Shown here piece after piece: positions 3,736 to 56,140 of a stretch of 64,000 nt of DNA (its first letter is position 1; each line of letters begins with the position of its first letter). Below the pieces are notes generated by a model. It searched no databases, was not told the origin of the DNA, and worked only from the letters and a program-made list of their open reading frames with translations. The DNA is taken from positions 49,910-113,909 of the forward strand of contig CAYYYL010000002.1 of NCBI GenBank assembly GCA_964475835.1, written 5' to 3'. This DNA comes from an uncultured Verrucomicrobiota bacterium. Its GTDB lineage: Bacteria > Verrucomicrobiota > Verrucomicrobiia > JABWAM01. The position numbers and the translations under genes were made by a program.

Positions 3736-5160
3736 ATGTCTGAACAACAACCCTCTATTCCTCCCTCGCCAAAACCGGAGTCGAATTCCTCCAGTGCTCC
3801 TTATCAGGGTAAACCCGATCGCCATGGGGGACGAAGGGGGCACCATCGTGGGCGTTGGCGTCGATTCCGTCCGCACCGGGAAGAAATTCGTCAGGAGCCA
3901 CCCCCGGAATCCCTCAATCTCGCGGACTGGATGGATCTTGCGCCCGAAGTGTTGGAAGCCAGGGCGAGGGAAAATGGATTGGAGTTGAAATCGGGAATTT
4001 CGATGGAGCAATTGCCCCGGGAATTGGTGCGTGCGCAGGCTGCCAAACTCGCTTTGATCATGGTGGAGGGAACGCTTGAATTGGGAAAGGGAGGAGGGGG
4101 ATTCCTTCGGTCCAGCGAAGTGAGCTATCAGTCACGCCCGGTGGACCCTTATGTTTCTCCCCCTTTGATCAAGCGGTTTGCACTTTTGCCGGGGGATTTT
4201 GTAAGCGGACTTGCCCGACCTCCCCGGGATCGGGAGCGTGGACCGAACTTGTTGAATGTCGACCTGATCTGGAATCAACCTCCCCAACGGATTCAGGGAC
4301 GGAAGGCGTATGATGAACTCACACCCCTCTTTCCTCAAAAGCGTCTGGTTCTGGAAAATGGCCCGGCTTCCGTCAGTATGCGTGCCCTGGACCTGTTGGC
4401 TCCCTTGGGTCGGGGGCAGCGCGCCTTGATCGTGGCCCCCCCCAGGGCTGGGAAAACCATTCTACTCCAACAGGTGGCGGAGAGCATTGAAGCCAATGAT
4501 CCGGATGTAACGGTTATCGTCCTCCTTCTCGATGAACGCCCTGAGGAGGTTCACAACATGAAGCGGGTGGTGAAGGGTGAGGTCGTCGCAAGCACCTTTG
4601 ATGAAACCGTGGACCGGCATGTGCGCGTTGCGGATCTTGTGATGGAAAAAGCCCACCGGCTTGTCGAAAACGGACGTCATGTGGTGGTTCTGATGGATTC
4701 CTTGACCCGCCTTGCCCGAGCGTGCAACGCCCTTTCCCCCTCCCGCGGGAAATTGATGTCGGGAGGCGTGGAATCGGGAGCCCTGGCAAAACCCCGGAAA
4801 TTTTTCAGCGCAGCTCGGAATACGGAGGAGGGTGGGAGTCTTACCATTGTAGCCACGGTCCTCGTCGAAACAGGAAGCCGGATGGATGACATGATTTTTG
4901 AGGAGTTCAAGGGGACGGGCAATATGGAGGTCTACCTTAGTCGCGATCTCCAGGAGCGGCGGATCTATCCTGCCATTCATATCGAAAAAAGCGGGACCCG
5001 CCGGGAAGACCTCCTGTATCATCCCGATGAGTTGATCCGAATTCAGGCTTTGCGTCGTGCTTTATCCGAGCACCCCCCCTTGGAAGCCATGGAAGAATTG
5101 ATCGGACAGCTCAAGGCAACAGGGTCAAATGCCGAGCTCCTCATGCGATTAAAACTTTGA
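3736..5160 (+). CDS. rho: Transcription termination factor Rho (with an N-terminal basic/low-complexity extension)
   Basis: 474 aa. The Rho ATPase core is conserved: the Walker A APPRAGKT motif, the [11 protein letters not shown]-loop region, and the C-terminal RREDLL. The start is 2 bp after the coaE stop, so the two genes are probably co-transcribed. Confidence 0.95.
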
Positions 5161-8064: not shown

Positions 8065-10710
8065 TCAGCCAACGACCAGGTTCACAAGTTTCCCGGGAAC
8101 GATGATCCACTTTCGAATGGTCTTATCCTTGATGGAGTCCTGGACGCGTGGGAGCGCTTGAATCTTCTGACGGAGTGTCGCTTCGTCAAGTTCCCGGGGG
8201 ATGCGGAGTTTTTCCCGTAACTTGCCATTCACTTGCACGACCATTTCCACTTCGCTTTCCACGAGATGTCGCTCGTCGTAGGGGGGCCATGCCTCGTAGG
8301 CCAGGGTGTCCGTTCCTCCCGTTTTCTGCCAGAGTTCCTCTGCGAGATGGGGGGCAAAGGGTGCGAGGAGAAGGAGGAAGGGTTGAACGATGCGACGGGG
8401 ACGATTGTTCCACGTCATGGCTTCATTCACAAAGACCATCAAGGCAGATATGGCGGTGTTGAATGCCATGCCGTCGAGATCAAGGGTCACTTTTTTAATG
8501 GTCTTGTGCAGAGTGATCCATTGCGCTGCGGTGGGTTCAGCGTTGGAGATTAGGGGGTGCAATCGGATGTGGTCCATCGCGGAAGCAGCCTTGCCGGGAT
8601 CATTGCCAATCAGGGTGAGTTCCTGATCGAAGTCCTCAACACTCGATTCGTCTGTAAACAAGCGCCAGACACGACCGAGGAAACGATAGACTCCTTCCAC
8701 ACCGTCCATGCTCCAGGGTTTGGTTTGTTCAAGGGGTCCCATGAACATTTCATAAAGTCGCATGGCATCGGCGCCATATCCGGTGATCACGGTGTCCGGA
8801 TTGACAACATTTCCCCGGGATTTGGACATTTTTTGACCGTCCTCTCCGAGAATGAGCCCTTGATTGACAAGTTTGCAGAAAGGTTCCGGGGTTGGGACAT
8901 GTTTCAGGTCGTAAAGAACCTTGTGCCAGAAACGTGCGTAAAGGAGATGGAGCACGGCATGCTCGGTGCCGCCGACATAGAGATCGACGCCACCCGTTTT
9001 TTGATCCTGCCCCGCGGACAGCCAGTAGGTGGATTTTGCCTGGTCACAAAACATGGTGTTATTTTGTGGATCAAGATAGCGAAGATAGTACCAACAAGAT
9101 CCCGCCCACTGAGGCATGGTATTGAGTTCGCGTTGGGCTCCATCAGAAAGGCGAACCCAGTCACCCGCTTTGGAAAGCGGGGGTTCTGTGGTCCCTGTGG
9201 GTTTGAAATCGGCCAGTGCGGGCAATTCCAGCGGCAGATCGCTGTCGGACAGGGGGTGATGCTTCCCTTCTTTCCAAACGATGGGAAACGGTTCCCCCCA
9301 ATAACGCTGTCGGGAAAAAAGCCAATCACGAAGTTTATATTGAACCGTGGGGGTTCCGAGGCCCCGTTCGGAAAGCCATTCAGTGATTTTCTTTTTCGCA
9401 TCCGCCGTGGTAAGTCCGGTGATGGGGCCTGAGTTGATGCTGGTGCCATCGCCGGAGAAACACGTTTCACTGGGAGAACCCCCTTTGACGACCTGGATGA
9501 CCCTCAGGCCATATTTTTGGGCAAACTCAAAGTCCCGGTCATCGTGAGCTGGAACGGCCATGATAGCACCGGTTCCATATCCCATCATCACATAATCGGC
9601 GATCCAGATGGGAATGGCTTCATTGTTGACGGGATTGATGGCATAAGCGCCTGTAAAAATGCCTGTTTTATCTTTGGCCAACTGCCGGTCCTGGTCCGAC
9701 TTGGACGCGCAGCCCTTTTGGTAGGAAAGCACCGCGGTACGTTGGTCCTCGGTGATGATCTGATCCACAAGAGGGTGTTCGGGGGCGAGCACCATAAATG
9801 TCGCGCCAAAGAGCGTGTCGGGACGAGTTGTGAAAACTTCAACTTTGGACGTTGCCCCTTGAACCTTGAACTCCACTCTGGCTCCTTCGGAACGGCCAAT
9901 CCAGTTGCGCTGAAGCAATTTAATGCCCTCTGGCCAATCCACCAGATCAAGTTCGGAGATCAGTCGGTCCGCGAAACTGGTGATGCGTAGCATCCATTGG
10001 CGCATGGGGCGACGTTCTACGGGAAATCCGCCCACTTCACTCTTTCCATCCACAACCTCCTCATTGGCAAGAACCGTGCCGAGTTCGGGACACCAGTTCA
10101 CAGGGACTTCCGCGACATAGGCAAGACGGACCGAGTCCGGGTCCTTTCCCTTGTAGGTGTCGATGGGCTCGGCCCTCCGGGTTGCGGGGTTAAACCAGGA
10201 GTTGTAGATTTTGAGAAAAATCCATTGAGTCCAGTGGAAGTATTTGGGATCGGTGGTGTCGACTTCCCGTTCCCAGTCATAACTGAACCCGAGGGCTTGG
10301 ATTTGCCGTCGAAAGTTGGTAATGTTGGTTTCCGTGGTCAACCGTGGATGCTGTCCAGTTTTGATGGCGTACTGCTCGGCGGGAAGGCCGAAGGCATCCC
10401 ATCCCATGGGATGGAGTACGTGTCGCCCCCTCATTCGTTGATAGCGGGCGAGAATGTCCGTCGCGGTGTATCCTTCCGGATGTCCGACGTGAAGCCCGGC
10501 GCCCGAGGGATAGGGGAACATGTCGAGGATGTAGTACTTGGGAGCGTAAGGAGTGTCAGGAGTAGGAGCGTTGGCTTTGCCGTGACGCTTTCGAAATGGG
10601 TGATTTTCGGGCAGAGGGGTCCCCGGATCAAAGGCGCGAAACGTCCGGCCTTTCAGCCATGCCTTCTGCCACTTCGGTTCGATCAGATGAAACGGATATT
10701 GTTTGCGCAT
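8065..10710 (-). CDS. leuS: Leucine--tRNA ligase
   Basis: Class I aaRS with the [16 protein letters not shown] motif and KMSKS (QKMSKSRGN). The ORF track offers a TTG at 10725. The ATG at 10710 ([18 protein letters not shown]) fits the usual LeuS N-terminus better. Confidence 0.95.
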
Positions 10711-13624: not shown

Positions 13625-15520
13625 CCCCTATTTTTTGAGACCGTACGGCACGCGAACGCCTGGCAGAAACCTGCTACCCGTGGCGCGTTCACAGAAAGAG
13701 AATTCCCGTTGGATACGGTATCCGTTCATCGCCCCCGTAATGTAGATTGGAAACGTGCCGCAGCTCTCCTTTATGGAGATTGGGGAACGAGCAAGGCCTA
13801 CGTCATTGGGCTCGCATTTGTTGCCGCCCAATATTCGTCACTTCCCATTATTTTGGCCGTGTGCGCCCTGACGGCTGTGGTGGCCTACAACTATCTCATT
13901 ATTTGCAATCACTTCCCGGATGGAGGGGGGGTGTATTCGGCAGCGCGAGATCAGAGCCGGTTGCTTGCGGTGATCGGAGCTCTGTTGCTTGTCGCAGATT
14001 TGACGGTTACCGCATCCCTGAGTGGATGGAGTGCCTTGCGGTATCTTGGTTTGAATGAACACGTGGGGCTCGCCACGGTGGTTCTGATTTTTGGTGTGGC
14101 GGTGATGAACGCATTTGGTCCAAAGCACAGTGGGAGTATTGCGTTTCTTCTGGCCATCCCCATGGTCCTTGTCGTGTTGCTGATTGTGGGGTTGAGCCTT
14201 CCCTTCCTCACAACCGTTCATCTTGAACCCAGTCATTCCTCCTTTTCTCATACATGGGTGGCTTTTGCCGGCGTCATCCTGGCCCTGAGCGGGGTGGAGG
14301 CCATAGCCAATCTGACGGGGGTGATGAAATTGGATCCGGGATCGACTCCTGACGAGCCCAGAGTAAAGAAGACGGCGCGCCTGGCCATTCTTCCCATCGC
14401 TGCGGAAGTTGTTTTGGGAACCGCCTTGCTGGGATGGGCGATGCTCTCATTGCCTCATGAGAATCAGGACATGTTACTCGCGCATAAAGAGGACATGCTT
14501 CGTTTTTTGGGTGAGTTTTACGGGGGCATCCATTTTGGTCCCGTGGTTGCACGGATTTTGGGGATTGTCATCGGAGCGATTGTGGGACTTCTTCTTCTGA
14601 GCGCCGTTAATACCGCCGTCGTGGCCTTGATCGGGTTGACCTACATGATGGGGCGCGATGGGGAGATGCCCCGACAGTTAACCCGGCTGAATCGTTATGG
14701 GGTTCCATGGATTCCCCTGCTGATTGCCACCTTGTTGCCGATTGTCGTGGTGCTCCTAACCTCGAATTTCGACGCGCTTGCCGCTCTTTATGCTATTGGG
14801 GTTGTCGGCGCCATCACCCTCAATCTCGGATCTTGCACCTTCAATAAAAAGTTAAAGATGCACTGGTACGAACGGATTTTGATGGGATTTACCGCGTTGA
14901 TTCTTCTTTTCATTGAAATCACGATTGCAAAGACCAAGCCTGACGCGCTCTTTTTCGCCCTCTGGATCCTGATTGTCGGCCTTTCCCTCCGGGCCTACGC
15001 CCAGAAACGGGCCGGATTGCAAACGCTGCTGGTGCACAAGGATGTGGCGGCTGTTTTTTCACCGGAAGCCATTGCGAACATGAAACTCAATGTGGACGAA
15101 GGCCAGAAGGTGATGGTGGCCGCACGGGGGTTGACCCCGGTGGTTCGTTACGCCCTGGAAGAGGCACATTTGCGAAAAGGCGCCCTGTATGTGCTCTACG
15201 TAAAGGAGCTGGCGGTGGCGATTCCCTCCAATGTGATCACAGGCATCGCTCCCCGCTGGCAGGACGACAGTCAGGCTGCTGCGATCATCTACGGGGTGAA
15301 GGATCTAGCCAAGAAACACGGTGTTCCGGTCATTCCTCTGTATGCAGTCAGTGAAGATCCGGCGGTCACCATTGTGGATCTTGCGGCGACCATGGGAATC
15401 GATTTTCTCATGCTTGGGGCCTCGAATCGACGTTTCATGACCCAACTCCTGAAGGGGGATGTTATTGCCGAGGTTGCACGCGATCTGCCGGACAATATCC
15501 AGCTCGTGATTCACGGTTAG
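13595..15520 (+). CDS. APC-superfamily permease fused to a C-terminal universal-stress-protein (UspA) domain
   Basis: About 12 transmembrane segments with APC-like GGGVYSAARD. The C-terminal ~150 aa (LYVLYVKE...GASNRRFMTQLLKGDVIAEVARDLPDNIQLVIHG) is a Usp fold. The exact start is uncertain because the ATG at 13595 overlaps the neighbouring gene's 5' end. Confidence 0.6.
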   Translation: MKGANDRLTHPLFFETVRHANAWQKPATRGAFTEREFPLDTVSVHRPRNVDWKRAAALLYGDWGTSKAYVIGLAFVAAQYSSLPIILAVCALTAVVAYNYLIICNHFPDGGGVYSAARDQSRLLAVIGALLLVADLTVTASLSGWSALRYLGLNEHVGLATVVLIFGVAVMNAFGPKHSGSIAFLLAIPMVLVVLLIVGLSLPFLTTVHLEPSHSSFSHTWVAFAGVILALSGVEAIANLTGVMKLDPGSTPDEPRVKKTARLAILPIAAEVVLGTALLGWAMLSLPHENQDMLLAHKEDMLRFLGEFYGGIHFGPVVARILGIVIGAIVGLLLLSAVNTAVVALIGLTYMMGRDGEMPRQLTRLNRYGVPWIPLLIATLLPIVVVLLTSNFDALAALYAIGVVGAITLNLGSCTFNKKLKMHWYERILMGFTALILLFIEITIAKTKPDALFFALWILIVGLSLRAYAQKRAGLQTLLVHKDVAAVFSPEAIANMKLNVDEGQKVMVAARGLTPVVRYALEEAHLRKGALYVLYVKELAVAIPSNVITGIAPRWQDDSQAAAIIYGVKDLAKKHGVPVIPLYAVSEDPAVTIVDLAATMGIDFLMLGASNRRFMTQLLKGDVIAEVARDLPDNIQLVIHG

Positions 15521-47676: not shown

Positions 47677-50600
47677 CTATGCCGGCTTGGAGATCTTTTT
47701 TATGCGCCACTGTTGAATCGACAAGAAAATGACTGGGGTTACGAGAAGGATATGAATGAGGCTAGAGATCATGCCCCCGATTACGGGTGCGGCAATGGGA
47801 CGCATGATTTCAATGCCGGTTCGTTCGTTGGAGAAGATGGGAAGCATGAGTGGGACAAGGCTTGCGAGGACCGTGGAAACAGTCATCACCTTGGGGCGCA
47901 TGCGCAGAGCCGCCCCTTCCAAAATTGCTTCCATGAGTTGGGGACGTGTTAAATGACCTCCCTGGGCCTTGGAATGGCGTTTAACAGCCTCCTCAAGGTA
48001 GATGACCATGACCACCCCTGTTTGGACTGCGGTTCCAAACAGTGCGATGTAGCCCACCCACACCGCCACTGAAAAATCATAGTTCAACATCCATTGAAGG
48101 AAGACTCCCCCTGTCAGAGCGAAAGGAACGGCCAGAAGAACGTGGGCGGCTTCAAGGAAGGATCGATAGACCATGTACAGAAGCACAAAGATGATCATGA
48201 TGACGACCGGGCCCACGATAAAAAGGGTCCGATGAACCCGGAGGAGATTCTCGTACTCGCCTCCCCATGAAATGGTGTACCCGGGAGGAAGGGTGATCTG
48301 ATTGATTTTCTGTTTTGCCTCTTCAACAAAACCGCCAAGGTCCCTGCCTCGAACATTGCATTGCACAAAAACACGCAGTTGTCCGTTTTCACTCGAAATC
48401 ATGGATGGACCCGTGGAGGAGTGAATTTCCGCCACTTTTCCAAGGGGAATGGATGCCCCATTCATGGAGGAGACCAGAATGTTTGCAATGGCCTCCGGAC
48501 TGTCCCGTAATTCCCGGGCATAACGAAGTCGCACGGGAAACCTCTGTCGACCTTCAATGGTGGTAGTCAGGTTTCGACCTCCAATGGCGGTCTCAATGAC
48601 ATCCAATACCTCGTCCATTTTAACTCCATAACGGGCGAGATCGTTGCGCTTGAGCTCAATTTCCAGGTAGGGGCTCCCCACCCCGCGTTCTGCGTAAATG
48701 TCAGCGGCACCGGGAATTGTTCGCAGGAGGCCTTCGACCTCGATGGCTTTTGCCTCGAGTGTTTTGAGGTCATCGCCAAATAATTTAACGGCGATTTGGG
48801 TGCGCACACCGGTGTTCAGCATCAGCACCCGATTCTGAATCGGTTGCAAAAAAGCGGGAGTGAATCCCGGTATGTGACTGACGGCGTCGGTCATCTCCGC
48901 TATCAGGCTGTTCTTGGTCACGCCGGCACGCCAGAGATGCTCTGGTTTCAATGTGATGGTGGTTTCGATCATGGAGACGGGCGCTGGGTCGGTCGCTGTT
49001 TCCGCCCGCCCCAATTTTCCCACGACCTCCTCCACTTCAGGAAACTGATGAAGGATGCGGTCCTGTTCAGCCATCACCTTTTGAACCTCGGTAATGGAGG
49101 CGCTTGGAATGGTGGTGGGCATGAAAAGCAAGGCTCGTTCGTTAAGTGGGGGCATGAATTCCACCCCAAAACGGGTTGCCAGAAATGCCGCGCTTAAAAA
49201 AAGTGCGCCGGCGATTCCGAGAGTTGCGGCCCTGTGGTTCAATGCAAGGCGCAGAATGGGTAGATAAATGCGAAGCAGGATTCGCATGAGGGGATTTTCG
49301 TTTTCGTCATGAATCTTTCCCCTTACGAGAAGGGTGCAGAGCACCGGTACCAGGGTGACGGCGATGGCGGTGGAGGCGATCATCGCAAAAGTCTTGGTGA
49401 AGGCCAGGGGGTGAAACAGCTTTCCCTCCTGCCCTGTCAGGGCAAATACTGGAATGAATGCGAGGATGATGATGGCCATCGAATAGAAAATGGGACGGAC
49501 AACCAATTTCGTGGCATCAAGGGTGATTTCTACAATATGAGTTCGTAGAAAACTATTTTTCTCAGAATCGCTTGCATGAGGGATTTCCCTCCGGATGCGA
49601 ATGTGGGCTTCCCTCATCACACATTCCGTGACAACGATCCCTGCGTCGACCAGAACGCCGATGGCGATGGCAATTCCGGAGAGGCTCATGATGTTGGATG
49701 TAAGGCCAAATTGTTTCATCATCACAAACGCCATGAGGATGGAGAGCGGGAGCGGAATGGTCACAATGGCGATGGATCGGAAATGGAATAGGAAGATGAT
49801 GTGGGCAAGCGTCACCAGGATGATGGCCTCCAGAAGGGCAAAACGAAGGGTCTGAACCGCTCGGGCGATCAATTCACTCCGATCATAAAAGGGGCGAATC
49901 TCCACTCCCTCCGGAAGCCCCCGCTGAATTTCACTGATTTTGGCTTTCACGCGATCAATCAGCTCACTTGTGCTCACCCCGTAGCGGGCAACGACGATGC
50001 CGCCGACGATTTCCTCGCCATTGCGATCCAGGGCGCCGCGTCGGAATTCAGGGCCCAGTTGGACGCTTGCCACATCCCGTACCAGAACCGGTTGGCCATC
50101 CCGATAGTCCACAAGGACCCGTTCGATGTCTTCCGTGGAGTGAAACAAGCCAAGTCCGCGAACCAGAAATTCCATCCGGTTTTGCTCGATCACATTTCCC
50201 CCGACGTTGTTATTTGATCCCATGACGGCTTCCGCAACCTGTTTCAAGGTTACGTTGTACGAGCGCAATTTATTGGGATCGACGTCAATCTGGTATTGGC
50301 GGACAAACCCACCAACCGAAGCGACCTCCGCCACGCCGGGGACCGAATTGAGTTGGTAGCGTACAAACCAGTCTTGCAGGCCCCGCAACTCACCAAGGTC
50401 ATGCCCCTTCCCCATGGCTGATGCTCTGGAAGTGTCGAGGTAGTACTCATAGATCCAACCCAAGCCCGTGGCGTCGGGGCCAAGAGTGGGTGTGACCCCT
50501 CTCGGGAGGGACCCTCCAAGCGTGCCCAGTTTTTCGAGGACGCGTGCCCGTGCGAAATAGGTGTCCACGCTGTCTTCAAACACAAGGGTCACCATGGAAA

Positions 50601-50868
50601 AACCGAAGTTGGAATTCGCCCGTATGCTTTTTACTCCGGCCAGGCCCCGAAGATTGACGCTGAGGGGGTAAGTGACCTGGTCCTCGATCTCCTGGGCTGC
50701 CCGGCCTGGCCACTCGGCGAAAACAATGACCTGGTTTTCACTCAAATCCGGAATCGCATCAATGGGGGTATGATAAGCCGCCCAGATCCCCCACCCTGTA
50801 AGCAGAAGATAGGCGATCAGGACCAGGAAGCGATTTCGCAAAGACCACTCAATGAGTTTCTGGATCAT
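47677..50868 (-). CDS. cusA: CusA/CzcA-family heavy-metal efflux RND permease
   Basis: Twelve-TM RND architecture. The N-terminus [23 protein letters not shown] and the conserved [16 protein letters not shown] are typical of CusA/CzcA. The ATG at 50868 is preferred; it leaves a 4-bp gap after cusB. Confidence 0.9.
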
Positions 50869-50872
50869 GGAG

Positions 50873-52318
50873 TCAATGGGTGTGACCCTGGCTGGTTGTG
50901 GAGGGGGGGATCGTTGGTTGGGAGGCATCCTGGGAGGTTGCAGGGGCGCTTCGCAATTGCGCCTGGGCATCAATCAGGAACGCGCCCGCAGAAACGATGG
51001 TCTCTCCATCTTCCAATCCTTCAAGGATCTGGGTGTAGTGAGTGGTCACGGTCCCGATCCTTACATTTCGCTGAACAAAGAGACCGCTTTCCTTGCGAAT
51101 ATAGACAACGTGGCGGGTTCCTAGATCGAGGATGGCTGAATTCGGAACACTCAGAACCTGCTCCCCAAGGGGGATTTCCAGGTTGCCTGTCGCGCTTAAG
51201 TTAGGCAGGAGGCGATGATCCTTGTTCGGGACCGTGAAGCGGACAGGAACCGTCCGGCTGTTGGTGTCAATGGCGCGGCTGATGAAGGAAAGGGTTCCGG
51301 GAAAGGTTTCACCAGGAAATGATTTTGTAGTCAAACGGACTTTCTGACCTGTGCGGAGGAGGCCCAGATCGGGTTCAAAAACCTGGCCGTTGAACCAGAG
51401 TTCATCCAGGGGAACAATATGGTAAAGAACCTGGTCGATCTTTGCCAGTTCACCGATGTGCACCATGTTTCCGACGATGGACCCCGAAATGGGAGAGCGG
51501 ATGATGACTTCCGGTTTAGCTGTTTTCTCACTTTTTAATCGTTCGAGATCCTCCGGGGTAAAACCGATACGTTCGAGACGTTCCTGTCCAACGGCGATGA
51601 CCGAATCCAGAAGTTCCCGTTCGTAAAAGGTGCTCATCCAGCGATCCCTTACTGCCCGAAGGTATTCTTCCTGCAATTTGAGGGCTTCGGTGGAATAGAT
51701 GGAGACAAGCGGATCTCCGCGTTTGACTTCGGTTTGATTGAAATCGACAAACTGCTTTTCAATCCTCCCCTCCACAAGGGGGACAATATCCCGATGTTGA
51801 TTCAAATCGTAACCCAAGGTTCCAAAAATCAGCAGCTCCCGCGAAAGTCTGCGTTTTTGAACCTCTTCGGTTCTTACGGCTGCCTGACGAATGCCTTCCT
51901 CGGTGAGCCTTACTTCGGTCATAATCGACTCATGTCTCCCGACCGAGTCATAAACGGGAATAAGATCCATTCCGCAAATCGGGCACTTGCCCGGGTGGTC
52001 GGAATGGATTTGGGCATGCATGCTGCAGGTATAGTGGGTAAGTTTGCGTTCCTGCTTTTCAGGTTGAGGACTTGTCTGGCTGGGAGCGGATTGCATCCGG
52101 ACGGCGACCAGATCCATTCCGCAGATGGGACAGCGGCCGGGTTTTTCTGAGCGGATCTGGGGGTGCATGCTACAGGTGTAGTAGGTGACATCGTTTGTGC
52201 CCTTGGTGGAGTTTGTGGTTGCAGCAGGTGCGTTGGATTGAGAGCAGCCTTGAAGGAGTAGAATCGCGCCCAGCAATAAAAGGCCCACGGAGGATCGGAT
52301 CCAGGGTAAGTTTTTCAT
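50873..52318 (-). CDS. cusB: RND efflux periplasmic adaptor (CusB-like membrane fusion protein), lipoprotein, with two tandem N-terminal Cys-rich metal-binding-like repeats
   Basis: Lipobox LLLQGCS. Two repeats, [25 protein letters not shown] and [25 protein letters not shown], followed by the MFP beta-barrel/lipoyl domains. The ATG at 52318 is preferred over the long ORF-track extension. Confidence 0.8.
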
Positions 52319-52323
52319 AAGGC

Positions 52324-52980
52324 TTAAAATTGAGCTGCGATCTGCATTCCCAGAACGGGATGCCACTCCCAGTCGGTTTCGCCACGTTCGTCCAGGCGCA
52401 TCCAGTAGACCTGAGCCTCCCAATGGCGGACAATCGGCACTCCCACTCCCACAGCGAGTTGGTTTTCCATGAAGCGGCCCTCCTGGATGGAATAGAGCCA
52501 CTTTTCCGAAACAAAAGGATCGATCTGGATCGATCCGATTTTCCATGAAGTTCCAAAGGAGGTCTGATTGCTGTAAACCGCCTGCCAGGTTTCGGACTCA
52601 TCCTGCGGGACCGGAAATTCCATGCGGAAGCGGTTGGAAAGACTCCAGTCTTTGATGGGAATATCCATGGTGGCGGAAAAACTCGGTTTGTGGGTTGTTT
52701 CGTCTTCCTCACCAAATCGCTGGTCCTGTTCGTAGGCCATCGCGAAGGTCCAGCGTGGCGAGTAACGCCAGACCAACATGGGTTCGATCTCATCATAGAT
52801 GGGATCTGAAATGTCCTTTTCGACACGGCCCTGGGCCCGCAGGCTGAGGTCAAGGGAGGAAGCGACAACCTGGGTCCAGGAAGCTTCGGTCCATAGCTGC
52901 CAGTCCCCGTCCGCAGCGTGTAGTTTTGGAAGAAGCGCCAACAGGAGGCTGATAAAAAGCGTTGAGCTGAGGTGTTTCAT
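52324..52980 (-). CDS. Small secreted beta-barrel-like outer-membrane protein candidate (possibly DUF2490-like) in the position where an outer-membrane factor would be expected
   Basis: Signal peptide MKHLSSTLFISLLLALLPKLHAA. Alternating amphipathic beta-strand pattern. C-terminal ...AAQF with a terminal aromatic residue, as in OMP beta-barrel signatures. Confidence 0.45.
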   Translation of the reverse strand: MKHLSSTLFISLLLALLPKLHAADGDWQLWTEASWTQVVASSLDLSLRAQGRVEKDISDPIYDEIEPMLVWRYSPRWTFAMAYEQDQRFGEEDETTHKPSFSATMDIPIKDWSLSNRFRMEFPVPQDESETWQAVYSNQTSFGTSWKIGSIQIDPFVSEKWLYSIQEGRFMENQLAVGVGVPIVRHWEAQVYWMRLDERGETDWEWHPVLGMQIAAQF

Positions 52981-53453
52981 TGCAGAAATTCGAGGGGACA
53001 GGTGGCTGCCACGGCATCGCCGAATTTTTTCAGGAATTGGGCCCGCTGTTCCGGAGTGAGCAGTTGGGAGACAGCAAGAATGTGCTGCATGGTAAGTTCA
53101 TCCGTCGCATGCTGCGCCTCGGACATCTCCCTTTGCAGGGCGCTCATGGCGGCAGCATCCGTGGCTCCGGCCTGAAACATATGGGCGATTTTCATTCGAG
53201 CTGAGCAGTGGCGCTGGCAACATTCCTTCACATTTTGGTGGTAGTTGGTTTCAAGCGCTTCGATTTTGGATTTTTGTTCCTTCGAGAGCTGTAAATCCGC
53301 GAACAAGGCTTCGGATTTCATCGAGGTGGGCATGGATTGAGCCATCCGGTCGGTGAGGTCCCGGGCTTTCCAACCGAGGAGCGCCAGACAGGAGACGCCA
53401 ATAAGAAGGAGAAAAAGGGTTCCTCCCAGCCATTGCTTGGTTTTCGATTTCAT
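52977..53453 (-). CDS. Periplasmic LTxxQ-motif protein (Spy/CpxP/ZraP-like stress or metal-binding family)
   Basis: Signal/TM anchor MKSKTKQWLGGTLFLLLIGVSCLALLG. Motifs LSKEQKSKI and LTPEQRAQF. The body is helical and His/Met-containing. Confidence 0.55.
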   Translation of the reverse strand: MKSKTKQWLGGTLFLLLIGVSCLALLGWKARDLTDRMAQSMPTSMKSEALFADLQLSKEQKSKIEALETNYHQNVKECCQRHCSARMKIAHMFQAGATDAAAMSALQREMSEAQHATDELTMQHILAVSQLLTPEQRAQFLKKFGDAVAATCPLEFLQ

Positions 53454-53827
53454 GGGTGATTTTTGTCTTCGAGTTTGAGATAGGTTCCGGCAAGTGAAGC
53501 CTCCCCCAGCGGGCGAGCCAGCTCAGATTGCCAGGTTTGGGTGGCCACGAACTTCGAGTGCTTGTTCAGGCGGACCCATTGAAAACCGGTCATCAATAAA
53601 ACAAGGGAGGCTGCAAGGGGGAAAAGGAGTCTGGGCTCGGGAAACCACTCCGTCCATGAAGGGATGACCCGGGAACGCTTTCCATGGATCTCCCTCATGA
53701 TATTCCGGACTAGGATGCCTTCGTTGCGTGGCGGGCGTGGCTGCCAGGCTTTGAGGAGATCGGAAAGCGAATCGTTGGGTTTCATGGGCTCTATAGGTAT
53801 AACGAACGGACCCATCAAATCCCTCAA
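53450..53827 (-). CDS. Putative anti-sigma factor (single-TM membrane protein)
   Basis: 125 aa with one TM helix (LLFPLAASLVLLMTGF) and a position downstream of the ECF sigma. The assignment is by context only. Confidence 0.4.
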   Translation of the reverse strand: MRDLMGPFVIPIEPMKPNDSLSDLLKAWQPRPPRNEGILVRNIMREIHGKRSRVIPSWTEWFPEPRLLFPLAASLVLLMTGFQWVRLNKHSKFVATQTWQSELARPLGEASLAGTYLKLEDKNHP

Positions 53828-53881
53828 AAAAACAACCCGCTCCCCAAAGGAGAGCGGGTTATTAACGAAGTGACAGAAGAA

Positions 53882-54124
53882 TCAGCGGATTGAAACACAA
53901 GTAGCGCGGACAGATCCTCCCTTGCTGGAGTAAACCACAACCATTTTTGGTTCGCCGCATTTTCCACAGCACGAATGCCGGGAAGCACAGCTCTGTTCCT
54001 TAAGAGTTGCGGAGCATCCTTTTTGGTGTTTCTTAGACCCCATGGGACATTGGGAAGCATCTCCCGCAAAGGAGACTCCGGCGATGGTGAGAAGAAGGAC
54101 GATGGCGAGTGAGATGGATTTCAT
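53882..54124 (-). CDS. Small secreted cysteine-rich protein (80 aa; seven Cys in a ~60-aa mature region)
   Basis: Signal peptide MKSISLAIVLLLTIAGVSFA, then GDASQCPMGSKKHQKGCSATLKEQSCASRHSCCGKCGEPKM.... Located between the ECF sigma and the anti-sigma candidate. Confidence 0.45.
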   Translation of the reverse strand: MKSISLAIVLLLTIAGVSFAGDASQCPMGSKKHQKGCSATLKEQSCASRHSCCGKCGEPKMVVVYSSKGGSVRATCVSIR

Positions 54125-54172
54125 AGATGAGACAAGTTCATCATATGAATGAAAAAAACACAAGAGAGAGGT

Positions 54173-54763
54173 TTAATCCGGAAGGAACGGACGCAGCTTG
54201 CTCCGAAGAGCCTGTCGGGCACGGTAGATTTGCATTTCAATCTTTTTGGGCGATCCTCCCAGGATCGCAGCTATTTCGCGATGTCCAAAACCCTCGTATT
54301 CCGCAAGGACAAACGCGGTCCGCTGATCCGGAGGAAGTCCGGCAACGGCCTTTTCCACGGCATCGGATAATTCGTTTTGAGCGACCCCGGGATCGAGAGC
54401 ACCATGGACTTCACTTAGGGTGGCATAGATGTTGCCACTGGGATCGGGAAGTACCGGATTTCTTGCTCTTCGCCGAAGGGCATCCACAGCTTTGCGTACC
54501 CCAATTTGGAAAAGCCACGACTGGAATGTTCCACTCGGCTGGTATCGAGGAAGGGATCGGTATCCCTGGATAAATGTCTCCTGAGCGACGTCCCGGGCCT
54601 CATCCCAATCAAAAAGCATGCGGTAGAGGGTGGCCTGCAATCTTCCTCCAAATGTTTCAATGAGTAATTGGAAGAATGAGTCGTCTCCCCCCTTCACTCG
54701 CCTGATCCAATCCTGAATTTGCGCCTCGGATGGTGCGGCATGTTCACTGGGATCGGAATTCAT
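54173..54763 (-). CDS. ECF-family RNA polymerase sigma-70 factor
   Basis: Sigma region 2 (ARDVAQETFIQGYRSL) and region 4 (RTAFVLAEYEGFGHREIAAILGGSPKKIEMQIYRAR). Start taken at MNSDPSEH (54763). Confidence 0.85.
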   Translation of the reverse strand: MNSDPSEHAAPSEAQIQDWIRRVKGGDDSFFQLLIETFGGRLQATLYRMLFDWDEARDVAQETFIQGYRSLPRYQPSGTFQSWLFQIGVRKAVDALRRRARNPVLPDPSGNIYATLSEVHGALDPGVAQNELSDAVEKAVAGLPPDQRTAFVLAEYEGFGHREIAAILGGSPKKIEMQIYRARQALRSKLRPFLPD

Positions 54764-54856
54764 CCAAACGGCACCATTCCGAAAACCTGCATTGAAATCA
54801 ACGAGATCCGTTTCGAAGTTGGCATTTTGAAAATTCACGAGCATCCTCTTCGAAGG

Positions 54857-56140
54857 ATGAAGTTTATCTGGAGAATGGCTGCTGTCGTGGGGATTTTGAC
54901 CGCTGTTTTAGCGGGAATCCTGGCGGGGTGCCATCGAACTCCCCCCGTACTGCTTCATGTGGCGCTCTGGTTGCCGGACGAGGAGCTTGAGGCACTGACC
55001 AAACAAGTAGAGGAGTTTCAACGGGAGCATCCTTCCGTGCGGGTGGAGATCATGCGTTTGCGAAACGGCGAGGAGGCGCGGCAGAATCTGTCGTCCGGGG
55101 CTGCGACAGGGGTTCTTCCCGATATCTGTATGTTGTCGGCCCGGGATCTGGTCTGGTGGGCTAATTCCCAGACTCTTGCGGACTTGACGCCATTTCATCC
55201 TGATACCCATGCCTTCCATCCCGATCTCCTCACTGCATTTTCGCGAGGGGGGAAGCTTCTTGCGATCCCCTGTGGCTGGTCCACTTCCCTGCTCTACTAC
55301 AATCGGGAAATTTTTCAAAAACAAGGAGTGCCATTTCCCCGTGGGTTCTGGCATTGGACGGACCTTTTGACCGCAGCCCAGGCGCTGACATTGGTTAATG
55401 AGGATGGAAAGGTGTTTCAGCATGGGTTGGAGCTCGATCCTGAAATGGGATCCTGGGCGCCCTTTGTCTGGCAGAATCGTGGAGAAATGATTCGGTCAGA
55501 TGGGAGCTGGTGCCTTACGGATCCGCAATTTCTCCAATCCAATCTCCGAGCGATTGATTTTTACGCGGGCCTTGTGCGAGAGCATCGTGTGGCGGCGCTG
55601 GATCGTGATGCCAGTCACCATTTGTTCCTGGAACAGAAATGTGCGATGACCTTGGGACCGCGGAGTCTTGGTCGTGAATTGGCGCTTCAGTCCCGGTTTG
55701 AATGGGATGTGGCTCCCCTTCCACGCGGGGAATGTTTCGCGGATCTCCTGGATGCATGGGGTTATGCCCTCTCCAGTCAGTCCCCTCATCCTACCGAGGC
55801 GTTTGAGCTGATTCAGTTTCTCACCCGGGAAACGGCTCTGGCGACCATGATGCAGCGAGGCTATGTGGCTCCCCCTCTGACAAATCTTTTCGCCTCCCGT
55901 TTGTTTTTGGATTTCCCCGGCATTCACCCTGCGAACAATCAAGCGTGGATCGACAGCCTTCCCATCAGCCGGGTGCCCGCCTTTGCCAGCAACATGCAAA
56001 AGGTGGGTGAGATCATGTCGGGAGAAATGCTCGCCCTGATGTCTGCCACCAATGTGAGCGCCCGAAGCGCGTTGGAACATATGGAGGCACGACTAGAAGA
56101 GTTGACCTTGTTAAGCGCACCCTCTAAATCCAGCCCATGA
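54857..56140 (+). CDS. ABC transporter substrate-binding lipoprotein (family 1, sugar-type); orphan with no adjacent permease or ATPase
   Basis: Lipobox LAGCH, with an SBP_bac_1-like composition and length (~427 aa). Confidence 0.65.
   Translation: MKFIWRMAAVVGILTAVLAGILAGCHRTPPVLLHVALWLPDEELEALTKQVEEFQREHPSVRVEIMRLRNGEEARQNLSSGAATGVLPDICMLSARDLVWWANSQTLADLTPFHPDTHAFHPDLLTAFSRGGKLLAIPCGWSTSLLYYNREIFQKQGVPFPRGFWHWTDLLTAAQALTLVNEDGKVFQHGLELDPEMGSWAPFVWQNRGEMIRSDGSWCLTDPQFLQSNLRAIDFYAGLVREHRVAALDRDASHHLFLEQKCAMTLGPRSLGRELALQSRFEWDVAPLPRGECFADLLDAWGYALSSQSPHPTEAFELIQFLTRETALATMMQRGYVAPPLTNLFASRLFLDFPGIHPANNQAWIDSLPISRVPAFASNMQKVGEIMSGEMLALMSATNVSARSALEHMEARLEELTLLSAPSKSSP

Follow-up and report, generated by a model that had tools for sequence, protein, structure and literature searches.

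A predicted secreted mini-protein with variable cysteines and a conserved C-terminus in a verrucomicrobial sigma factor and heavy-metal efflux module

What is encoded by a small cysteine-rich open reading frame (ORF) that lies between the gene of an extracytoplasmic function (ECF) sigma factor and that of a putative anti-sigma factor, and is it a gene at all? The question arises in a 64,000-nucleotide stretch of DNA from an uncultured Verrucomicrobiota bacterium (assembly GCA_964475835.1, contig CAYYYL010000002.1; hereafter the window), in which the ORF, here called the mini-gene, has the ECF sigma gene upstream and an orphan single-pass membrane protein, the anti-sigma candidate, downstream. 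A first-pass annotation of the stretch had proposed that its product may be a thiolate-based periplasmic metal sensor or chaperone, or a ligand of the anti-sigma factor. Our analysis indicates that the mini-gene very probably encodes a real secreted protein of a new family linked to the surrounding module. The signature of this family is a C-terminal β-hairpin with a free arginine carboxylate and not its cysteines; the cysteine-rich stretch is a lineage-specific trait of a fast-evolving, probably disordered linker. The gene and the parts of its product are as follows.

53882 to 54124, minus strand: mini-protein gene, 80 codons plus TGA, unannotated in the source assemblies
54065 to 54124, minus strand: Sec-type signal peptide, residues 1–20, MKSISLAIVLLLTIAGVSFA, with cleavage predicted by inspection between SFA and GD
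53954 to 54064, minus strand: variable, probably disordered segment, residues 21–57, rich in Cys, His, Lys and Ser, with six of the seven cysteines including CC and CGKC
53885 to 53953, minus strand: conserved C-terminal β-hairpin, residues 58–80, EPKMVVVYSSKGGSVRATCVSIR-COOH, the family signature

The frame opens with an ATG at 54124, closes with a TGA at 53884–53882 and specifies 80 amino acids (aa), with MKSISLAIVLLLTIAGVSFA as the signal peptide and GDASQCPMGSKKHQKGCSATLKEQSCASRHSCCGKCGEPKMVVVYSSKGGSVRATCVSIR as the mature part. A longer form from a TTG at 54163 was unsupported, as the orthologue at locus L015, described below, begins at the equivalent ATG. In the signal peptide, judged by eye like those of all family members, a basic n-region leads into a hydrophobic core of 15 residues and the cleavage motif is S-F-A; inspection of the N-terminus found neither a lipobox nor a twin-arginine motif. 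The mature protein of 60 aa contains seven cysteines, at positions 26, 37, 46, 52, 53, 56 and 76, which form one CC doublet and one C-x2-C (CGKC), together with two methionines and two histidines; this cysteine content (7 of 60 residues) compares with 0.86% in the 12,126 codons of the long ORFs of the window (binomial P ~9e-7). The translation, the character of residues 1–20 and the neighbouring genes thus agree with the first-pass description of a ~60-aa mature peptide with seven cysteines (CC and C-x2-C among them), Met and His, a clean signal peptide and a position between the sigma factor and the anti-sigma candidate.

Coding status and relatives of the mini-gene

Taken by itself, the window offers no more support for the mini-gene than chance would give. 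Its codon-usage score was −0.01, compared with 0.36 ± 0.13 for in-frame gene windows of 80 codons and −0.56 ± 0.23 for off-frame windows; its own frame scored best of the six. The codon signal is only borderline coding, and probably for this reason gene callers skipped the mini-gene. An 81-aa ORF overlaps it in another frame, and no Shine-Dalgarno sequence was found before it or before any of 13 window genes checked, in the operon and among its neighbours. The exact protein, from either start, is missing from a 15-billion-protein collection that does contain its neighbours on the same NCBI contig (184 kb). Logan contig L001, in which the site of the mini-gene is an uncalled 357-nt gap, was rejected as a second genome because its DNA is 100% identical and carries no comparative information.

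Searches that started from the mini-protein itself could not place it. A word-indexed search of 5.8 billion proteins recovered no homologue, and phmmer, run exhaustively with the mature peptide on 1.84 billion representatives, recovered no family member; its sole match, P0006, was discarded as a spurious multi-stretch match to a 360-aa tandem-repeat translation. A metagenome pattern scan and a tblastn search against plasmids returned nothing. Pfam and NCBIfam scans gave no relative for any member of the family described below (the best Pfam match was CUT_C at E = 0.045, under cutoff), and a profile search of the PDB gave no meaningful relative for any of them. A search of genome contigs with the sigma factor returned just two unrelated ECF sigma factors of 25–27% identity. 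Relatives were exposed only by tracing orthologues of the sigma factor (48–61% identity; some labelled Verrucomicrobiae), a route by which the mini-protein could be reached when single-sequence searches of billions of proteins had failed.

The closest of these relatives settles the coding status. At L015, where the sigma factor is 61% identical, the sigma gene is followed in the operon by an 88-aa ORF and then by genes for an anti-sigma candidate (128 aa), for Metal_resist and DUF2490 proteins and for a CusB that carries two HMBD domains. The 88-aa ORF (4589–4855) has a signal peptide, starts 48 nt past the sigma stop as in the window, and matches the mini-gene in slot, frame and aligned stop. 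BLASTP aligned the two proteins with 62% identity across the last 29 residues (E = 5e-10), the tails being ...MCCRVSKEKKMTVVYSSKGASVHSTTVSVR in L015 and ...SCCGKCGEPKMVVVYSSKGGSVRATCVSIR in the window. Over the last 23 codons the proportion of nonsynonymous differences (pN) was 0.20 and that of synonymous differences (pS) was 0.77, which is saturated; over the whole gene pN was 0.45, showing that the middle region evolves fast. The mini-gene is therefore a gene whose C-terminus is under purifying selection at the protein level.

A non-coding reading, by contrast, is very unlikely, and we find it hardly credible that the mini-gene is no more than a fortuitous frame in the 3′ untranslated stretch from the sigma gene to the terminator. 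The borderline codon score and the overlapping 81-aa ORF would suit such a reading, as would the passing over of the mini-gene or its L015 orthologue by three gene-calling pipelines and the absence of a Shine-Dalgarno sequence. However, the last feature is shared by all 13 window genes checked, those of the operon included, gene callers did report the remoter members of L095 and L096, and L015 keeps the start, frame, stop, signal-peptide character and C-terminal 23 residues across saturated synonymous sites. All Rfam matches to the region lie below noise. A non-coding RNA was rejected as well, as the sole Rfam match, an rnk leader, scored 23 bits where the gathering score is 55 and was centred on the terminator; across the whole 64-kb window Rfam gave nothing above its gathering thresholds.

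More distant members came from two further loci. A C-terminal fragment at the edge of L007 prompted us to retrieve longer flanks of L095 and L096, in which we found one member of 106 aa (L095) and a tandem pair (L096; 89 aa and 94 aa, the second called as 108 aa). The L096 paralogues, at 1312–1638 and 1737–2006, each have their own copy of the ECF-type promoter and contain no cysteine; they have in common with the L095 member an N-terminal G-W-(N/D)-Y motif that is not in the window and L015 proteins. At L013, an ORF beginning MKKTSLIPGLAIGLSF... follows the sigma gene and a promoter and is cut by the contig end with only its start visible; upstream this locus is syntenic with the window, sharing a divergent lipoprotein gene of 41% identity. 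In reciprocal searches with hidden Markov models (HMMs), each subgroup gave the best non-self matches of the other among 11,031 stop-to-stop ORFs from all compared sequence: the profile of the window and L015 proteins matched L096 at E = 1.2e-5, and that of the mature L095 and L096 proteins gave 4.2e-4 for L015 and 0.012 for the window. This link is strengthened by shared architecture and gene context and by the placing of the motif at the extreme C-terminus in both subgroups.

Every full mini-gene (window, L015, L095 and L096) lies within a cluster of sigma factor, anti-sigma candidate, Metal_resist protein and CusBA. The co-occurrence with ECF sigma factors that the first-pass annotation had put forward as a check thus holds at L015, L095 and L096; it does not extend to L008, L009 (sigma 56% identical) and L010, where neither mini-gene nor module was found after the sigma gene, and the association of mini-gene and sigma factor is therefore not universal. 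L004 and L011 have the module and, in the stretch seen, no mini-gene. A 107-aa Cys-rich protein of L004 was considered as a member and rejected: it is without the hairpin, and its match to the family HMM (E = 0.22) comes mostly from the signal peptide. The CPMG(S)KK common to this protein and the mini-protein is treated as a convergent or chance motif.

Where members have been called, databases hold them as singleton hypothetical proteins. The genes of the window (53885–54124, minus strand) and of L015 (4589–4855) were missed in NCBI, Logan and JGI records, and the distant L095 and L096 members were called. As gene callers skip the former, searches of called proteins are blind to part of the family, a conserved small gene having been missed by standard gene calling in three assemblies. 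Judged from the sequences compared here, the family is previously undescribed and lineage-restricted (Verrucomicrobiae).

Conserved hairpin and variable cysteines

All five members share a signal peptide with MK(K/S), a hydrophobic core and a cleavage site of the form xFA followed by G, S or D, with a total length of ~80–106 aa. They also share, at the very end of the protein, the motif GK[MT]xV[VI]YSx[KR]GGxxRxTxVx[VI](I)R-COOH, in which K60, G69, V77 and R80 (window numbering) are invariant in the five sequences. The segment between these two parts is hydrophilic, variable and unalignable between members. An AlphaFold2 (AF2) model of the mini-protein, built on an alignment of four sequences from which that of L015 was absent, had a mean pLDDT of 52.7, with residues 20–50 below 50; strands at 60–66 and 72–78 (pLDDT ~65–71) form its sole hairpin, and no helices were predicted.

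The cysteines follow a different pattern. Mature family proteins contain seven (window), four (L015), three (L095), none and none (both L096), and between the window and L015 only those of the CC doublet are aligned. The L015 protein, with four cysteines and five histidines, carries a histidine run, AHHHKHKK, where the window protein has cysteines. No conserved cysteine pattern was found across the five sequences. The first-pass proposal of a thiolate-based metal sensor or chaperone as the conserved function is at odds with these counts; the annotation had named the absence of homologues with a conserved cysteine pattern as the outcome that would tell against it, and what we find is essentially that, as homologues exist and their cysteines vary. 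Since the L096 paralogues contain no cysteine and few histidines or methionines, metal binding cannot be the core function of the family.

These observations raise a rival explanation, namely that the product is a secreted mini-protein without metal chemistry, whose cysteines are structural disulfides or drift in a low-complexity linker and which plays another envelope role under ECF control, for instance as a structural, protective or pump-associated subunit. The cysteine-free L096 paralogues, the variability of cysteines elsewhere, the fast evolution of the middle region (overall pN of 0.45) and the lack of any detectable relation to a metal-binding family are all consistent with it, as is the periplasm itself, which favours disulfides. 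Against this, seven is an odd number, leaving at least one thiol unpaired; the exchange of cysteines for AHHHKHKK in L015, together with the other Cys-cluster proteins found in the same slot, looks like selection for metal ligands; and every instance of the family lies inside a heavy-metal module. On balance we regard this explanation as unlikely, though it keeps a real share of the probability.

The surrounding module and a proposed role

The mini-gene is embedded in a heavy-metal module with a CnrX-like sensor, a CusB with two HMBD and a CusA/CzcA pump, so that the compartment and context assigned by the first-pass annotation stand. The genes of the module and their counterparts are listed below.

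54173 to 54844, minus strand: ECF sigma gene, with Sigma70_r2 and Sigma70_r4_2
53450 to 53785, minus strand: anti-sigma candidate, 111 aa (P0001), with a ~50-aa cytoplasmic N-terminal part, one transmembrane helix and a short periplasmic tail
52977 to 53453, minus strand: CnrX-like Metal_resist/LTXXQ sensor, membrane-anchored and periplasmic (Pfam PF13801, 3.3e-14)
52324 to 52980, minus strand: DUF2490 protein with signal peptide, between the sensor gene and cusB (Pfam PF10677, 2.4e-14)
50873 to 52318, minus strand: CusB-like adaptor, a lipoprotein with two N-terminal HMBD and HlyD_D23 (NCBIfam CusB, RND_mfp)
47677 to 50868, minus strand: CusA/CzcA-family heavy-metal resistance-nodulation-division (RND) pump (TIGR00914, 1088 bits against a cutoff of 701)
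L015 5300–5761, L004 9450–9938, L011 6301–6786, L096 2917–3387 and L095 3006–3479: sensor orthologues
L015 5737–6408 and L011 6912–7592: DUF2490 in other loci

The closest solved relatives of the sigma factor are AlgU and RpoE. The anti-sigma candidate has no Pfam or NCBIfam match; its start at ATG 53785 is shown by a six-locus family alignment that begins MKPNDSL and in which the periplasmic tail is conserved. Its architecture and its pairing with the Metal_resist sensor, conserved at every locus, argue for an anti-sigma role. The sensor itself has weak full-length matches to CnrX (3zg1) and NccX (4clv). The CusB-like adaptor starts MKNLPW and, on inspection, has an LLQGC lipobox. In L095 and L096 an outer-membrane factor (OEP) stands exactly where the window has DUF2490, which makes DUF2490 a possible outer-membrane partner for the CusBA pump here.

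Between the mini-gene and the anti-sigma gene the locus is divided by a terminator and a promoter.

53824 to 53863, minus strand: intrinsic-terminator-like hairpin of 15 bp with a 3-nt loop, then U7, 19 nt past the mini-gene stop
53797 to 53825, minus strand: ECF-type promoter motif, GAGGGATTT-N12-CGTTATAC, right after the T-run of the terminator and 11 nt before the anti-sigma ATG
54125 to 54172, minus strand: spacer of 48 nt between sigma gene and mini-gene; L015 counterpart at 4541–4588
L015 4919–4947, L013 5183–5211, L004 8605–8633 and L011 5364–5408: promoter sites elsewhere
L095 1674–1702 and 14327–14355, L096 1280–1308 and 1663–1691: promoter sites elsewhere

The terminator hairpin of the window has a folding free energy of −29.8 kcal/mol (z −7.3; none of 200 shuffles was as stable), and L015 has a hairpin with U8 at the same place, of unrelated stem sequence (−37.2, z −5.4). 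The promoter pattern GRGGGWTT-N13-CGTT, at fixed spacing, occurs once in the 64-kb window and 12 times, at 8 distinct sites, across the 620 kb compared, against 0.38 expected, and all matches are on the coding strand ahead of module genes; a fuller form is GRGGGWTT-N13-CGTT(T/A/G)(T/A)(A/G)C with a T-rich stretch before it. As its two-block form resembles ECF promoters, we take the motif as the probable target promoter of this sigma factor. Anti-sigma genes have the motif in front of them in the window and L015, and so do the mini-genes of L013, L095 and L096 (both copies there). In L004 the gene behind it is that of the Cys-rich 107-aa protein, and L095 has a further site before a 157-aa gene rich in Cys and His; a position-weight scan added a variant site ahead of DUF3347 in L011. 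The layout of the window is thus sigma and mini-protein genes, terminator, ECF-type promoter, and then the genes of the anti-sigma candidate, sensor, DUF2490, CusB and CusA, and here the mini-gene seems to be expressed with the sigma gene rather than from the ECF-type promoter.

The 48-nt spacer gave neither a sigma-70-like site nor a match to the ECF motif in a position-weight scan. The window and L015 share in it the block TCTTGT.TTTT..TCA...ATATG.TGAA....TCTCA.CTATG, whose conservation stands out against saturated synonymous sites in the genes on either side; it might act in translation initiation or as a regulatory RNA element. At the other end of the sigma gene, the listed start at 54844 is only 12 nt from the ATG (54857) of the divergent lipoprotein gene (LAGC lipobox), and a start at M28 leaves a divergent promoter region of 93 nt. 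The true start is probably M28 (ATG 54763, 196 aa), as the L015 orthologue aligns from M28 and the lipoprotein gene begins at 54857.

The place just upstream of the anti-sigma candidate is held by different genes in different genomes: the mini-gene in the window and L015, the 107-aa Cys protein in L004, and DUF3347 in L011, L095 and L096. Related genomes (L004, L011, L095 and L096) thus repeatedly place secreted Cys-cluster proteins in this slot, a point in favour of the first-pass annotation. The DUF3347 proteins are secreted, with a CPM motif and C-terminal cysteine clusters. The L004 protein (8700–9023; hypothetical MCC7519059.1) is secreted and of low complexity, with eight cysteines, repeated S/A-C-P and a final TCPMGKK, the CPMGKK of which compares with CPMGSKK of the window mini-protein; it is possibly a periplasmic metallothionein-like protein. 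L095 carries a true Csp copper-storage protein (PF03860; 10692–11042) directly after the sigma gene and, at 14363–14854, a second gene behind an ECF promoter, for a protein, membrane-bound or secreted, in which one stretch is rich in Cys, His and Asp (CHHHSDDSDTDSHSHNDSH ... VCCESVK). These two genes point to copper as the stimulus of this sigma group. Unrelated secreted proteins with Cys/His/Met clusters recur around the sensor, which argues for selection: that the window and L015 tails are rich in Cys and His looks like adaptation to soft-metal binding and not like an accident, although the argument is circumstantial.

We propose that the mini-protein would be a Sec-exported periplasmic accessory of the module formed by the ECF sigma factor, the anti-sigma candidate, the CnrX-like sensor and the CusBA efflux system. 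Members of the family are built of a signal peptide, a middle that varies and is probably disordered, and the conserved hairpin with its free Arg carboxylate. The hairpin would act as a docking element, joined by β-strand addition to some conserved protein of the module, most likely the anti-sigma/sensor pair at its periplasmic face and otherwise the CusB adaptor or DUF2490. The disordered tail would be a lineage-specific payload. In the window (seven Cys, two His, two Met) and in L015 (four Cys, five His) it might form a capture arm for the soft metals Cu(I) and Ag(I), possibly also Zn or Cd, serving as a buffer for metal in the periplasm or as its donor to the sensor or pump, a role that in sister operons appears to be filled by DUF3347 or a separate Cys-rich protein in the same slot. 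We hold this combination of docking hairpin and metal-binding tail as a tentative reading, preferred here but quite possibly wrong.

Several observations weigh against it, in addition to the borderline codon usage and the overlapping ORF that bear on the mini-gene as such. The L096 paralogues have almost none of the residues that a capture arm would need, and the cysteines of the others may simply form disulfides in the oxidising periplasm. In the window the mini-gene is not behind the ECF promoter, so metal induction may be absent. The AF2 confidence is low, at the mean pLDDT given above, and too low for a fold search. The link between the window/L015 and L095/L096 subgroups appears modest, resting on ~22 residues and context with modest E-values, and the family has been seen in just four or five genomes. 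Both metal binding and partner binding are inferred.

Comparison with known systems

Known small secreted proteins that act on an ECF system include MucE and DimA, which in Pseudomonas aeruginosa switch on the AlgW/MucA/AlgU pathway: their C-termini activate AlgW, which then cleaves MucA (PMC3819740, PMC12780092). The mucE gene is itself AlgU-dependent (PMC3819740). Activation of this type requires a C-terminal aromatic tripeptide, WVF or WTF, for the PDZ domain (PMC12780092). The mini-proteins resemble MucE and DimA in being Sec-exported, ~60–90 aa long and poorly structured with a conserved C-terminus, beside an RpoE/AlgU-like ECF sigma factor, and, for the mini-genes of L013, L095 and L096, in apparently being expressed from the regulon of the sigma factor itself. 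They differ in having no sequence similarity, a 22-residue hairpin ending in Arg in place of the aromatic tripeptide, and a CnrY/CnrX-like partner module. The tripeptide is not in the mini-protein, which ends in V-S-I-R (V-x-[VI](I)-R family-wide), and no PDZ protease was noticed among called genes beside the sigma gene in the fetched loci, the only loci looked at.

This comparison suggests a second rival explanation, the main one, which keeps the docking idea but makes the mini-protein a signalling ligand, much as in the alternative of an anti-sigma ligand that the first-pass annotation had named and that would suit the conserved C-terminus: the C-terminal hairpin and free carboxylate would bind the anti-sigma tail, the sensor or a protease and tune the release of the sigma factor as MucE and DimA do, with the Cys/His tail adding metal or redox dependence. 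It would explain why the extreme C-terminus is the sole element conserved family-wide, and it accords with the general build of DimA and MucE (PMC12780092, PMC3819740), with the position of three groups of mini-genes (L013, L095 and L096) behind an ECF promoter, comparable to the AlgU dependence of mucE (PMC3819740), with AlgU and RpoE as closest solved relatives of the sigma factor, and with the apparent co-transcription of the window and L015 genes with the sigma gene before the terminator, as expected for a component present before induction. However, the terminus V-x-[VI]-R is not the WVF, WTF or YxF needed by AlgW/DegS PDZ domains, the called neighbours in the fetched loci include no noticed PDZ protease, and the anti-sigma/sensor pair resembles CnrY/CnrX, which is non-proteolytic (PMC6851896). 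The tandem duplication in L096 with separate promoters suggests a need for dosage that is more typical of a stoichiometric effector, and L004 and L011 have the module without a mini-gene in the stretch seen. We give the signalling ligand a minor, if appreciable, chance.

A bolder variant appears improbable to us. The mini-proteins might be a new class of periplasmic co-sensors whose hairpin inserts in the sensor/anti-sigma complex, competing with or completing the periplasmic tail of the anti-sigma factor, and whose own exchangeable tail, in the window a thiolate-rich antenna for metal or redox state, sets the stimulus. If this were true, ECF specificity would be reprogrammed by a swap of tails in a 60-aa protein and without proteolysis, a protease-independent counterpart of MucE and DimA.

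Returning to the preferred accessory reading, small lineage-restricted secreted accessories of a metal-resistance or ECF locus are a kind of protein with precedents (PMC2864759), although the family itself is new. CopQ, CzcJ and MmrQ of Cupriavidus and Ralstonia carry three or four RDXXTDG repeats, and the spacers between these are fixed in length (PMC2864759). Like them, the mini-proteins are small, have a signal peptide, are lineage-restricted, lie in or near heavy-metal efflux loci, are probably under metal-responsive control and occur as paralogues; unlike them, they come from another phylum and have a single C-terminal hairpin as signature, and inspection of the five family sequences found no RDXXTDG repeats.

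Small secreted proteins, the periplasmic metal chaperones and metal sponges of the Cus, Sil and Pco systems, are also encoded with CusCBA-type pumps. CusF is a folded β-barrel with a Met/His/Trp site; SilE and PcoE, by contrast, have no fixed fold and take up metal on ligands dispersed along the chain, which are His and Met and not Cys. The small secreted mini-protein would resemble SilE and PcoE in the disordered, scattered-ligand binding proposed for its Cys/His tail, and it differs from CusF, SilE and PcoE in that the metal ligands of the family are not conserved. Pfam and NCBIfam gave no match of the mini-protein to CusF at E up to 1–5, nor to any model of SilE or PcoE, and the AF2 model shows one hairpin only and not a CusF-type β-barrel. 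The same databases gave no match to the models of Csp (PF03860) and bacterial metallothioneins, families marked by a four-helix bundle lined with Cys or by a conserved array of Cys, and no helices are predicted.

DUF3347 (PF11827) proteins occupy the same slot upstream of the anti-sigma candidate, behind an ECF promoter, and are likewise secreted, with a CPM motif as in the QCPMG of the mini-protein. They differ in being ~160 aa long and helical, and no homology is detectable: the mini-protein has no Pfam match to DUF3347, and the family HMM matched the L011 DUF3347 protein only at E = 4.9. As L095 and L096 carry both, the mini-protein and DUF3347 are not simple substitutes. The mini-protein thus fails all testable defining features of MucE/DimA, CopQ/CzcJ, CusF, DUF3347, Csp and metallothioneins and founds its own small family. 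If the preferred reading is confirmed, the simple design of a conserved docking hairpin with a freely evolving metal-ligand tail would show how lineages tune periplasmic metal handling or sensing; if the protein is only a lineage-specific accessory, the result is a useful annotation correction and nothing more.

The module as a whole is closest in organisation to CnrYXH of Cupriavidus metallidurans, with which it shares an ECF sigma factor, a small single-pass protein as anti-sigma factor or, in the present module, candidate for that role, with a cytoplasmic part of ~45–50 aa, a Metal_resist sensor, an adjoining heavy-metal efflux RND pump and an ECF promoter. CnrY and CnrX signal by conformational change without proteolysis, and the Cnr locus is without a mini-protein (PMC6851896). 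The present module differs in a sigma factor nearer to RpoE/AlgU than to CnrH, in gene order, in the terminator that splits the locus, and in the ligands of the sensor, CxxHC and CP. With its ECF sigma factor, mini-protein, terminator, ECF-type promoter, CnrY-like anti-sigma candidate, thiolate-type CnrX-like sensor and CusBA, it is a compact and experimentally tractable system in a poorly studied phylum.

The metal site of CnrX is formed by His42, His46, Glu63, His119 and Met123 (PMC6851896). These residues are not found in the sensor of the window, in which the residues invariant in six orthologues are C79, H82 and C83 of the CxxHC motif and C152 and P153 of a C-terminal CP, a pattern that suggests a thiolate-based soft-metal variant of the CnrX type. 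Since the invariant thiolate/imidazole motif of the module sits in this neighbouring protein, the sensor is a stronger candidate than the mini-protein for the thiolate-based sensing in the periplasm that the first-pass annotation had sought in the mini-gene.

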